Assembly (NCBI GenBank): GCA_039194995.1
Contig: JBCCVR010000004.1
Coordinates: 18,883-82,882, forward strand
Reading direction: 5' to 3'
Length of the DNA stretch: 64,000 nt
Source of the DNA: Cyanobacteria bacterium P01_E01_bin.42
GTDB taxonomy: Bacteria; Cyanobacteriota; Cyanobacteriia; Cyanobacteriales; Spirulinaceae
A program made the position numbers and the translations under genes. Of the stretch, positions 8,356 to 11,375 are shown piece after piece (position 1 is the first letter of the stretch; each line of letters begins with the position of its first letter). The notes beneath the pieces were generated by a model. It saw nothing but the letters and a program-made list of their open reading frames with translations, made no database searches and was not told the origin of the DNA.

Positions 8356-8742
8356 TCACACTTCTTGCATTTTAGGAACTTCTGGTTTCGGAAGCAGTTC
8401 TAATTGTGATGCAATAGGACTGAATTGACAGTAACAAATCACGATTTCCTTTTTCTCGCAATCTCCTGATGCTGCGGGGTAGCGATCGATACGAGTAATG
8501 ACCCAATCTCCATCGCGGACGTGAGTTGAACTTTCTGGCGCGATCGCATCTTCAAATCCTTCCACGCGATGAAACTGGCGCAGGCGATCGCCAATTTTGG
8601 GAATGTTTCCATCAGGGTTATAATCCCAATGTTCGTCAAGAATATCGGTTAAGTTTCCCATCGGATTTTTACGCTTTTCCCATCCGGGCTGTTCTCCGTC
8701 GCAGTGGAAAATAATCCAAGTTTCTTTATTCGTTTCGCTCAT
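8356..8742 (-). CDS. hypothetical protein, larger member of cassette copy A (paralogue of 10606-11142)
   Basis: GGAGG RBS before the ATG at 8742. Shares NxP(K/E)(I/V)GDR and W(V/S)I(T/V)(R/G)(I/V)DRY motifs with the 10606-11142 product. Confidence 0.5.
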   Translation of the reverse strand: MSETNKETWIIFHCDGEQPGWEKRKNPMGNLTDILDEHWDYNPDGNIPKIGDRLRQFHRVEGFEDAIAPESSTHVRDGDWVITRIDRYPAASGDCEKKEIVICYCQFSPIASQLELLPKPEVPKMQEV

Positions 8743-8920
8743 GGTAATTATCCTCCATAAAAGATGTTTGCTTGCCTTTAAAAACACATTTAGCTTTGAG
8801 AATGGGATCGTTTGTGGGTTCAATGCGAACTAACTCCCACCCATTTAATCGAGCCATAATTTTGCATTGCATCCGACTGGCAGCATAGTGGACATTTTCG
8901 TTATTTTCTCGATCTGACAT
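8726..8920 (-). CDS. small hypothetical protein (64 aa), cassette copy A (paralogue of 11154-11375)
   Basis: Shares (V/W)H(Y/C)AA...KxM...L(V)xI..T(N/D)DPIL(K/R)..C(V/I)F(K/D)G with the 11154-11375 product. Confidence 0.45.
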   Translation of the reverse strand: MSDRENNENVHYAASRMQCKIMARLNGWELVRIEPTNDPILKAKCVFKGKQTSFMEDNYHERNE

Positions 8921-8931
8921 TACTTTACTCT

Positions 8932-10596
8932 CTATTGACCTGCATTACTCCATCCTTCAATTAAACCCGCAACAGGTGCGCTGAGAGGATTTGTTCTGAG
9001 AAATTCTAAACATCCTCCTTTGAATGCTGAAATCAGCTTTTCTTTCAATGTGGGGGTGTTTTCAATATGCTGCACGATTTGACTTGCTGCTTGCATTTGC
9101 TCCGTTGGTGAAGGATTGGGATAAGTTTGGGAAAGTTGGCCTAAAAGCTCTTGAATTTCTTTGACAGCCTCAGCAAGACTCTGTTTTTCTTCAGAGGAGT
9201 AATTGTATTGAGTGCCAATAATTTCATTATCTTTGAATTCTTGGGATCCGATAAAATTATTTCCTTTTGCTTCCGTCGCTAAGTTTTCAATTTTAGCTCC
9301 TCTGAAGTCGTAGTTAGATCTATCTTTTTCTGCTATTGTTTTAATGATGTTTGCGATCGTGTTTGAGAGTTTTGTATATTCGTTCCCTTGTGATTTTAGC
9401 TCTTTTTGTTTATTTTGTAACTCCTCTCGATAAAAAGAAATTTTCTCATTTTTTACTTCTAACAAGGGGTTATATTTTGCCCAAAAGTCTTGCTCGATCG
9501 CAATTTTAGTCGCTTCGTCAAGATATGGATGGACGCGGATACGAATGACAAGCGAGCCGTCATCAAGATTGTCAATAGTACGAACGGCAAAAATACAATT
9601 TTCCCCTTCTACACTGATTCGCTCCTGTTTAAGGCTTTGAAAAGAGGTTGCAAAAATGTCCCAGTCAATACCATCATTAAAAATTAGATCGAGCGTTTCT
9701 GTTGCTTTTTGAACGAGCCTAGTGAAATCTCCAGGTGCAAAGATTCTATTGGAATCGTGAGGTCTGCGATCGGTATAAACTGTTTTGCCATTTTTGAATT
9801 CTGATTTTAGGTAAATATATTCACAAATAACATTTTCAAATTTCGTCTCACTATTAATGTGCCAATCTTCAATACAAGCTCCTGTTAAATTGGCATTATT
9901 AAAATCAGTTGCAAGTGCTTGGACTCGAGTTAAATTTACTTTAGTTAAATTGGCTTTTCTGAATTTTGCCCGATCGAGAGAAGCATCATAAAGGTTGGCT
10001 TCACTAAGATTTGCTTCTTGGAGATAAGCAACCCGCAAGTTGACTCCTCGAAGATCGGTTAAATTAAGATTAGCTCCACTGAGATCTGCTTCACCTAGAT
10101 TTGCATAGCTTAGATCTGCACCATTGAGATCGGCATAACAAAGATGACTCAAATATAAATCGCTTTGAATAAGACTAGCAGAATGGAGATTGGCTTGACT
10201 GAGATCGGATTCTCTAAGATTGGCTTGGCTGAGATTATTCAAATAAAGATTAGTTTTTCCTAGATTGACTCCTTCAAGATCGGCTTCTCTGAGATTACGA
10301 TTTTTAAGGGGATGATTAAGAATTTCCCAAACTTTTTGCCATTTCTCATCTAATTGTGTTTTTTCATTAATTTTAATTCCATTAAGATTGGCTAAATAGA
10401 AATCGGTTTCCCTGAGATCTGTATTGCAAATATCTGCCTCACAGAGATCGGTTTGACTAAAATCTACTTCTTTAAGATTCATATTGCTAAGGTTGGCCTT
10501 TCTAAGGTTTGGATCGATATCCCAATTTTTGCCTCGCCATTCATTCCAAATTTCAACACCTTTCGCAAGAATATCTAAGTGGTTTTGATTTGCCAT
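8932..10596 (-). CDS. pentapeptide-repeat protein with a roughly 290 aa C-terminal non-repeat domain
   Basis: About 45 consecutive A(D/N)LSxANL-type pentapeptides in the N-terminal half. The gene is markedly AT-rich and contains no HIP1 octamer, unlike its neighbours. Confidence 0.8.
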   Translation of the reverse strand: MANQNHLDILAKGVEIWNEWRGKNWDIDPNLRKANLSNMNLKEVDFSQTDLCEADICNTDLRETDFYLANLNGIKINEKTQLDEKWQKVWEILNHPLKNRNLREADLEGVNLGKTNLYLNNLSQANLRESDLSQANLHSASLIQSDLYLSHLCYADLNGADLSYANLGEADLSGANLNLTDLRGVNLRVAYLQEANLSEANLYDASLDRAKFRKANLTKVNLTRVQALATDFNNANLTGACIEDWHINSETKFENVICEYIYLKSEFKNGKTVYTDRRPHDSNRIFAPGDFTRLVQKATETLDLIFNDGIDWDIFATSFQSLKQERISVEGENCIFAVRTIDNLDDGSLVIRIRVHPYLDEATKIAIEQDFWAKYNPLLEVKNEKISFYREELQNKQKELKSQGNEYTKLSNTIANIIKTIAEKDRSNYDFRGAKIENLATEAKGNNFIGSQEFKDNEIIGTQYNYSSEEKQSLAEAVKEIQELLGQLSQTYPNPSPTEQMQAASQIVQHIENTPTLKEKLISAFKGGCLEFLRTNPLSAPVAGLIEGWSNAGQ

Positions 10597-10605
10597 TAGT
10601 TTTTC

Positions 10606-11142
10606 TTAAACCTTAACAAATTGTTCTGCTTTATCCGCTTCTAACGCTTCTGGCACGTAAACACATTTACACAGATGTACAACTAAATAACAAGGTTGCA
10701 CGATCTTAGCATCGGGAATGTAGGAATCGATCGCAGCGACTCCCCAAGGTTGAGAGGTTACTATTTTCTCTTGGGTACGATATTGAGGTAAAAGAGAGCC
10801 GATTTCGGGTCGATCTCCAGTTAAATTGCGTCGTACTTGCAATAACAAGCCCTCTCCTAAATACAATTGTAAATTGAGTTGGCGATCGCGATAAGCACGA
10901 ACCCGAAACCAAGTAGCTCTTTCCTCTACTGTCCCGATCGCACAATGTACCAAATAAATTGCTTCTTTTGAATTTTCTGTGCTTTCATAGCGATCGACTC
11001 CAACAATTGACCAAAGCCTTTCACGACCTAAAGAAACGCGATCTCCCACTTCTGGAGGATTTGCCAAATATTCGATTTTGCGAGCTTCTCCTGCTTTGTA
11101 ATCGCGATCGTTGAGAGCATCAAAAAATACTAAATAGCTCAT
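10606..11142 (-). CDS. hypothetical protein, larger member of cassette copy B
   Basis: Paralogue of 8356-8742 (shared GDR and WxIxxxDRY...HC motifs). 9-bp gap to the pentapeptide gene. Confidence 0.5.
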   Translation of the reverse strand: MSYLVFFDALNDRDYKAGEARKIEYLANPPEVGDRVSLGRERLWSIVGVDRYESTENSKEAIYLVHCAIGTVEERATWFRVRAYRDRQLNLQLYLGEGLLLQVRRNLTGDRPEIGSLLPQYRTQEKIVTSQPWGVAAIDSYIPDAKIVQPCYLVVHLCKCVYVPEALEADKAEQFVKV

Positions 11143-11153
11143 ATTTTCGACTC

Positions 11154-11375
11154 CTATTCTTTTTCTTGGTAAGGCTTAAATCTTTCAGCTTGGCGATCGG
11201 CATCTGCACCATCAAAGATGCAAGTAACCCGCAAAATAGGATCGTCAGTTTCAACGATATCGACCAAGCGAATATCCAGTCCTTGCTGTCTAAACCGCTC
11301 TTCCATTTTAAAATAGTCTTCTTCGTTAGCGGCACAATGCCACTCCCTGACTTCACTAACGGGTTTCCAATCCAT
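11154..11375 (-). CDS. small hypothetical protein (73 aa), cassette copy B
   Basis: Paralogue of 8726-8920 (DPIL..C(I/V)F.G motif). 11-bp gap to the next gene. Confidence 0.45.
   Translation of the reverse strand: MDWKPVSEVREWHCAANEEDYFKMEERFRQQGLDIRLVDIVETDDPILRVTCIFDGADADRQAERFKPYQEKE

Follow-up and report, generated by a model that had tools for sequence, protein, structure and literature searches.

The window analyzed here, a stretch of 64,000 nt from the metagenome-assembled genome (MAG) of Cyanobacteria bacterium P01_E01_bin.42, contains at 8356-11375 five co-directional open reading frames (ORFs) on the minus strand, which encode, in this order, small B, large B, a pentapeptide-repeat protein (PRP), small A and large A. 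The locus carries a two-gene module in two diverged versions, A and B; the module appears to be restricted to cyanobacteria and horizontally mobile, and an unrelated PRP gene is inserted between the two copies. In each copy the first gene encodes a small alpha/beta protein marked by a conserved His/Cys/Cys cluster, and the second, which follows at once and is translationally coupled, encodes a larger, predicted beta-rich protein consisting of one (A) or two (B) repeats of ~80 residues. Several findings together argue for a self-contained mobile module: the two genes are linked and diverge in step, they are under purifying selection, they occur on minimal plasmids of two Rep types, they reside in a slot of variable cargo, and they are duplicated. 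The small and large proteins constitute two new protein families that form a mobile pair, probably with an addiction-type function, and the PRP is incidental. As to how such a pair might work, we tentatively favor a toxin-antitoxin-like module of cognate partners in which the large protein would serve as a labile neutralizer; we regard this as possible rather than likely.

Paralogy of the two gene pairs

All five ORFs are present as described in an earlier, sequence-only reading of this stretch: three of the junctions are gaps of 11, 9 and 11 nt, and the fourth, from small A to large A, is an overlap of 17 nt. The motifs quoted there for the small and the large proteins are found in the translated sequences, and the sizes hold as well, with the exception of large A, which comprises 128 residues, the stop codon having been counted as the 129th.

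By sequence comparison, the paralogy that had been proposed for both pairs is confirmed. Small A and small B match in a BLASTP alignment (E 3e-7), and their local score is 59, as against 22.6 ± 4.3 for 2000 shuffled sequences, none of which reached it (Gumbel p ~1e-5). Moreover, when a hidden Markov model (HMM) that represents small domains of the B and lipoprotein types and leaves out all A-type sequences is run against 3058 ORFs, it recovers almost the whole of small A (E 1.9e-7). For the large proteins the pairwise evidence is marginal (BLASTP E 0.002, shuffle p 0.007) and the case is decided by profiles. An exhaustive HMMER search with the large-B alignment, covering 1.84 billion representatives, returned 57 clusters at 50% identity, mostly of ~165-195 aa, 52 of which were aligned (alignment A5). 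The resulting 52-sequence profile, which contains no A-type sequence, matches the large-A alignment with an hhalign probability of 95% (E 2.8e-8), and every large-A gene is recovered with it by hmmsearch (E 8e-5 to 3e-4).

Profile comparison further indicates homology within the large family itself, between its N-terminal and its C-terminal half (hhalign probability 92%, E 5e-7). Judged from these alignments, large B consists of two tandem copies of a predicted beta-rich unit of ~80 residues, and large A is a single such unit, corresponding to the C-terminal repeat, preceded by a short unique N-terminus. Residues 27-115 of large A align with residues 87-169 of large B. Accordingly, the large A motifs PKIGDR, WVITRIDRY and ICYC, which had been aligned to the N-terminal half of large B, are placed on the C-terminal half by the profile; both placements look plausible because the two halves are homologous repeats. 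The reading frame of large A is open for 27 codons upstream of its ATG (8745-8823, minus strand), overlapping small A, and reads ...LLWRIIT..., a segment that BLAST aligned with the RLWSIVGV strand of the N-terminal repeat of large B. An open frame at this position is also present in two related loci (L008 and L010); it may be the relic of a lost first repeat or have arisen by chance.

Purifying selection acts on each of the four small and large genes, whose ratios of non-synonymous to synonymous substitution rates (dN/dS) lie at 0.05-0.21. The values are 0.18 for small B, 0.13-0.21 for large B, 0.13 for small A (compared with a TARA homologue) and ~0.05 for large A, whose constraint equals that of the flanking FAD-oxidase gene.

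Linkage of the small and the large gene

Pairs of a small and a large gene recur elsewhere, as the sequence-only reading had considered. Among the de-replicated large genes, 16 of 21 have an intact small gene directly upstream, and there is no case of a small gene without a large partner. In every locus found with the small protein as query, a large gene follows 2-13 nt downstream. The linkage persists over considerable divergence, since distant large genes with 22-30% identity to large B still have a gene with a small domain directly upstream (L018, L022, L024, L026 and L028). In addition, the distance matrices of the small and large proteins are correlated over the 16 pairs (r = 0.90, Mantel p 2e-4).

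There are five large genes for which no intact small partner is present, namely those of L001, L010 and L023, large A of L011 and one copy in L007. Large B of L001 is preceded by two unrelated 67-aa ORFs, and large A of L011 stands without small A. In L010 (136-431), a short contig, a ParD (RHH) gene lies directly upstream of the large-A homologue and overlaps a remnant of small A (residues 41-62). In L007 (5149-5888), and in the same way in L016, an XisI/XisH insertion is found beside a tandem duplication of the module, and the first small gene is cut down to its last ~17 residues.

Chromosomal copies of the pair adjoin XisH/XisI, Uma2, DUF29, ParD, DUF2887 and HNH-like genes, and tandem duplicates of the module occur in L007. 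A stand-alone RHH or XRE regulator gene precedes the pair in L020, L010 and L028. In L015 (2681-4545), three tandem paralogous genes for proteins of 196-197 aa, Uma2-like by eye, are located just upstream of the pair. The named sources are all cyanobacteria (Spirulina, Coleofasciculus, Lusitaniella, Limnofasciculus, Richelia, Oscillatoriales and Synechococcales), and a metagenome scan with the small-protein alignment returned three loci. The small family comprises 23 clusters.

Carriage on small plasmids

In three loci the pair resides on small rolling-circle plasmids of ~3.4-3.7 kb with two Rep types, as indicated by terminal repeats and rep genes. The sequence of L017 (3547 nt) carries an exact terminal repeat of 127 nt and therefore corresponds to a circle of 3420 bp; L019 (3883 nt) has terminal repeats ~3547 nt apart, consistent with a circle of ~3.5 kb, and L026 (3728 nt) has a terminal repeat of 30 nt (~3.7 kb). 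The initiator of L019 belongs to Rep_1 (PF01446, E 1.9e-83), and the Rep of L017 is similar to it by sequence. The Rep of L026 is different and shows an HUH-like motif, with a weak match to REP_ORF2-G2P (26.1 bits versus a cut-off of 27.8). All three share the gene string rep, a gene for an unassigned ~95-100 aa protein, a gene for an unassigned 90-135 aa protein, small and large. Between the two plasmid types, only the small and the large gene are common, and the pair makes up about a fifth of the plasmid sequence. The additional proteins of 90-135 aa were considered as relatives of the large repeat, and this was rejected (hhalign E >= 0.09).

None of the three plasmids is represented in PLSDB, and a tblastn search of PLSDB plasmids with four large proteins gave no match. 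In the literature on such small cyanobacterial plasmids we found no relevant description.

The variable slot and the pentapeptide-repeat gene

DNA comparison of three syntenic genomes shows that the flanks of the slot between the FAD-binding oxidase gene and the TPR gene are conserved and that the cargo differs. The window holds small B, large B, PRP, small A and large A; L011, a Spirulina MAG, holds small B and large B followed by 306 nt and large A; and L001, the SBLK MAG, holds two unrelated ORFs, large B, an HNH-like gene with a fragment and the 3' end of large A only. The 306 nt in L011 (8538-8843) consist of both ends of the HNH-like gene pair of L001 and thus represent a deletion remnant. 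The HNH-like gene itself encodes 390 aa with CxxC and HNH-type motifs and no Pfam match; together with the downstream fragment it occupies 6553-8036 of L001, where the window has PRP and small A.

The PRP clearly belongs to PF00805 (130.4 bits versus a cut-off of 20.2, E 1.4e-38). Its repeats extend over ~220 residues (approximately residues 30-250) and are followed by a C-terminal half of ~300 residues for which no PDB sequence match was obtained. It scores below all NCBIfam equivalog cut-offs, with 114.5 versus 125 bits for Alr5209, 101.8 versus 260 for HetL and 52 versus 240 for Qnr. The possibility that pentapeptide genes are recurrent neighbors of the pair found no confirmation: the gene adjoins the pair in this window only and is missing as an indel from the two syntenic relatives, L011 and L001. 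PRP-like similarity occurs in only one other type of locus, ~2.8 kb from the pair, where it reflects generic pentapeptide repeats. As the neighborhood is not conserved, the gene is an indel and its GC content is low (0.369 versus 0.449 for the window), we rejected the PRP as a functional partner of the pair; its low GC content and the variability of the slot among syntenic relatives mark it as a passenger inserted between the two module copies.

The presence of the HNH-like gene in the same slot of a sister genome and of XisH/XisI, Uma2 and ParD neighbors might suggest a hotspot resembling a defense island, in which the pair would function in anti-phage defense or abortive infection. The patchy distribution and the duplicated copies would be in line with such a role. 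However, we consider it highly improbable. None of the five window proteins has a PADLOC match, and neither protein of the pair has a nuclease, NTPase or sensor domain. A comparison of the 52 large-family members with Pfam, PHROGs and NCBIfam revealed no consistent match, with a single isolated one in PHROGs, and no relatives were found in viral contigs (IMG/VR) in a scan of limited sensitivity. A mobile toxin-antitoxin-like pair remains our preferred explanation.

Features of the small proteins

His13, Cys21 and Cys52 are kept in cytosolic small domains as well as in small domains that are part of lipoproteins, and all forms also have an F-(D/E)-G turn in common, together with a C-terminal tail that is aromatic. 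Small A retains the His, both Cys residues and a CVF-x-G motif; small B has Tyr at position 21 in place of Cys and keeps His13, Cys52 and the FDG motif. Structural modeling of small B with AlphaFold2 (AF2) yielded an alpha/beta fold of the order beta-alpha-beta-beta (pLDDT, the predicted local distance difference test, 77). From this pattern of conservation, metal binding by the small protein is plausible. In the large family the near-invariant residues are Pro, Gly and Trp, and one C-terminal Cys only is widely kept, often inside H-x-C-x-C. Taken further, the small protein might be a metal-binding or thiol-redox protein and the large one, with its HxCxC strand, its partner or acceptor, the two thus forming a module for metal or redox cargo. 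We assign little probability to this. Neither a metal transporter nor a metal-sensing regulator nor an oxidoreductase is linked to the pair in ~20 loci, the Cys21 position is lost in small B, the large family offers just the one conserved Cys, and structural matches are not significant. Our preference stays with a pair of cognate partners, of which the small protein might bind a metal.

In five independent, distant loci the small domain forms the C-terminal part of a protein of 117-144 aa that starts with a signal peptide and a lipobox (LLSAC in L018, LIGC in L022, LASC in L024, LTSC in L020 and L028; pattern [LVI][ASTVI][GAS]C after the N-terminal signal peptide). The ORFs of small A and small B in the window allow no upstream extension and encode no signal peptide. 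In three loci the gene upstream encodes an exported protein of ~140-156 aa without Pfam family (L018:3167-3637, L022:3-131, L024:3149-3571), which in L018 and L022 ends with the motif PNGQ(Y/W)V-V-Y. This protein may be a third component of the lipoprotein subtype.

The lipoprotein forms raise the question of whether the large protein could be a secreted effector or bacteriocin which leaves the cell through a type I-like route with a C-terminal signal, or by lysis, and against which the small protein, periplasmic as a lipoprotein or else cytosolic, protects. Such a system would account for a lipoprotein small domain beside a large protein without signal peptide, and the extra exported protein upstream in L018, L022 and L024 and the carriage on small plasmids would fit as well. 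Many large proteins also end in an acidic residue followed by hydrophobic residues or Ala (EAIAA, ELAVA), and tails of this kind are similar to motifs at the very C-terminus of certain type I substrates. Nevertheless, we think this unlikely, as none of the loci has a linked gene for an ABC exporter, a membrane-fusion protein or lysis, and the large family is devoid of invariant catalytic residues. Furthermore, immunity proteins in two different compartments would be unexpected for one toxin family, and large genes that occur alone, together with small genes that never do, reverse the pattern usually seen in toxin-immunity pairs. The latter pattern points instead to our preferred arrangement, in which the large protein would be the neutralizer.

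Features of the large proteins

Across the 52-sequence alignment Pro30, Gly39, Trp44, Trp78 and Gly109 are near-invariant, and no invariant polar residue of a catalytic type was identified. None of the members has a signal peptide. Secondary structure prediction for large B gave mostly beta strands, although the call is weak.

The most conspicuous feature is the C-terminus. In a set of 50 full-length representatives, each less than 50% identical to the others, 33 proteins end in Ala and 40 in Ala or Val, compared with a background of 5% and 12%, respectively, in 119 ORFs. A terminal non-polar tripeptide such as IAA, VAA, LVA or AVA is present in 32 of the 50 (64% versus 2.5%; binomial p ~1e-38). 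Genome-encoded ends of the family include AIAA, LVAA, ALVA, AVA and AAV, and tails of this ssrA-like kind are found on the large partners of all five lipoprotein-type small proteins. SsrA-type tags ending in LVA, AAV or ASV destabilize EYFP in Synechocystis (PMC2860132). The tail of the large family is thus a candidate ssrA-like degron, which would render the protein labile.

Proposed role and polarity of the pair

We propose that the small and the large protein are cognate partners, which together would constitute an addiction or competition module and help small plasmids and genomic islets to persist. The large protein would be a non-enzymatic, proteolytically labile binder or neutralizer, equipped in most of the family with the ssrA-like tail, and the small His/Cys protein, which is never found alone, would be the active partner. 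These roles are assigned on the basis of the orphan pattern, the degron-like tail and the pattern of residue conservation. Physical interaction of the partners, toxicity and its neutralization, degradation of the large protein and the polarity of the pair are all what we infer from such sequence features. A more specific version, in which a degron-tagged, cytosolic protein of tandem beta domains would control a His/Cys effector that is cytosolic or an exported lipoprotein depending on the lineage, would amount to addiction or competition across the envelope without catalogued counterpart; we consider this version rather doubtful.

The likeness to toxin-antitoxin or immunity modules pointed out in the sequence-only reading thus remains plausible and is strengthened by the carriage on tiny plasmids and in variable islands. 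The polarity implied there, with a small antidote and a large toxin, fits poorly, as orphans are always large genes and never the reverse, the small protein is often a lipoprotein and the degron-like tail is on the large protein; the polarity is probably the opposite, judged by these patterns. The classical type II arrangement, with the antitoxin encoded by the small upstream gene and the toxin by the large downstream gene, nonetheless deserves consideration. A small gene followed by a larger one, at a gap of 11 nt or an overlap of 17 nt, is the commonest layout of toxin-antitoxin operons, and carriage on plasmids and islands as well as tandem duplicates are equally in keeping with it. We regard it as quite unlikely, since in L001, L011 (large A) and L023 intact large genes under selection lack the small gene that would be their antidote, the supposed antitoxin is an exported lipoprotein in five loci, and it is the large partner that bears the degron-like tail. 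In addition, the supposed toxin family shows no invariant polar residues of a catalytic type, and the supposed antitoxin has no DNA-binding fold. 

Several observations, however, also weigh against the large protein as a labile neutralizer of the small one. A lipoprotein small domain and a signal-less large protein would reside in different compartments, which is difficult to reconcile with simple neutralization by binding. Both partners are acidic, so that there is no charge complementarity of the acid/base kind that characterizes some toxin-antitoxin pairs. The numbers of orphan genes are small and derive in part from short contigs. The tails of the two large proteins of the window are weak examples of the putative degron, with terminal Val only (FVKV in large B, MQEV in large A). 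As noted in the sequence-only reading, neither family can be assigned to a named domain: small A, small B, large A and large B have no match in Pfam, NCBIfam or PADLOC and no homology to a known toxin, antitoxin or defense family, and a PDB sequence search with profiles of both families was likewise negative. No HTH, RHH or AbrB domain is present in either protein. Finally, a structural search with the small-B model gave no significant match, and the AF2 model of large B, based on an alignment of nine sequences, is unusable as a fold (pLDDT 37).

Both families lie outside Pfam, NCBIfam and PADLOC, yet they are strictly linked, co-evolving and under purifying selection, and the pair has spread through filamentous as well as other cyanobacteria. 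Genes kept on minimal replicons usually serve the persistence of the element. The retention of the pair on such replicons thus makes it a good candidate for a new addiction or exclusion principle and for a stabilization cassette in cyanobacterial vectors. The switch of the small domain between a cytosolic and a lipoprotein form and the ssrA-like tail of the large protein provide testable handles. As an ordinary toxin-antitoxin system, the pair would still add a new family, and cooperation of the lipoprotein forms with a cytosolic partner would imply an unusual mechanism.

Gene map and transcription signals

The positions of the five genes and of the adjacent features are compiled in Table 1. 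Identical entries for small B (AAGA60_01515) and small A (AAGA60_01500) exist at NCBI as hypothetical proteins of the MAG P01_E01_bin.42, and large B is deposited as hypothetical protein AAGA60_01510 of the MAG 'Cyanobacteria bacterium P01_E01_bin.42'. The start codons of both large genes are preceded by putative ribosome-binding sequences at a distance of 8 nt, GGAG for large B and GGAGGA for large A (ATG at 8742).

Table 1. Features of the small/large locus and its borders in the window.
Feature	Position	Strand	Description
Spacer	11376..11462	-	87 nt, separating small B from the FAD-binding oxidase gene upstream of it
Small B	11154..11375	-	73 aa; predicted cytosolic
Large B	10606..11142	-	178 aa; predicted beta-rich, two homologous repeats of ~80 residues
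Pentapeptide-repeat protein (PRP)	8932..10596	-	554 aa; PF00805 match
Small A	8726..8920	-	64 aa; diverged paralogue of small B
Large A	8356..8742	-	128 aa; single repeat, homologous to the C-terminal repeat of the family
HIP1 hairpin	8295..8320	-	two GCGATCGC palindromes, 10-bp stem, located where the large A and TPR genes converge

The five genes may plausibly be transcribed as one unit, which could also include the upstream oxidase gene. No convincing internal terminator was detected in the five-gene run, the sole match on the minus strand being weak and located inside small B. A consensus promoter scan reported no promoter in the spacer upstream of small B; by eye, the spacer contains TTGACT ... 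TAAACT, a poor promoter-like match. The module may have its own promoter there or simply be transcribed by read-through from upstream. The HIP1 hairpin lies 36 nt downstream of the stop codon of large A and is highly stable (minimum free energy -27.4 kcal/mol, z -4.8, none of 200 shuffled sequences as stable). It is not followed by a U-run. The hairpin is a candidate for the 3' end of the transcript or for a stabilizer, and may act as a terminator. Further HIP1 sites are located within large A and also upstream of small B, in the spacer. A minus-strand ORF of 174 aa (11120-11644) runs in a different frame across small B, the spacer and the last part of the oxidase gene; without homologue support, it is most likely spurious. 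Neither tRNA nor tmRNA genes are present in the 64-kb window, and none of the Rfam families reached its gathering score.

Relation to known systems

Of the features of type II toxin-antitoxin systems, adjacent co-directional genes with a short gap or overlap are present, with similar spacing in all related loci, and so are the association with mobile elements and a patchy distribution (three small plasmids, the variable slot, 57 clusters). Homology of a partner to a known toxin or antitoxin superfamily was not found. With HigBA, HicAB and MqsRA the pair shares a small upstream gene tightly coupled to a larger downstream gene, an occurrence on plasmids and islands and diverged copies within a genome. 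In those systems the downstream partner is labile, a property that we would also expect here from the tail of the large protein. Unlike them, however, the pair shows no similarity in sequence or fold, its downstream protein has no HTH or RHH domain, and its small protein is a lipoprotein in part of the family.

The stand-alone RHH or XRE gene preceding the pair in L020, L010 and L028 and the unassigned gene for ~100 aa at the head of the gene string on the three plasmids are reminiscent of the three-gene systems omega-epsilon-zeta (pSM19035) and PaaR-PaaA-ParE. In contrast to these, the regulator is not conserved and is absent from the window, and there is no homology to epsilon, zeta or ParE. 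Colicin-type clusters, which combine a bacteriocin, its immunity protein and a lysis lipoprotein on small plasmids, resemble the pair in their small replicons of a multicopy type, a larger protein without signal peptide and a small lipoprotein partner; they differ in that the large protein has only ~175 aa and no recognizable toxin domain, the gene order and the orphan pattern are different, and many of the small proteins are cytosolic.

With regard to the individual components, the ends of the large family are like ssrA-tag degrons, as recognized in substrates of ClpXP/ClpAP and of tail-specific protease, and would function similarly, whereas the ends FVKV and MQEV of the window proteins differ. 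Alpha/beta sandwiches of the ferredoxin-like, ACT or CutA type are to be named among the closest known systems. The PRP, in turn, is similar to HetL, Alr5209 and Qnr/MfpA-like proteins in its PF00805 repeats and is set apart from them by its C-terminal half of ~300 residues.

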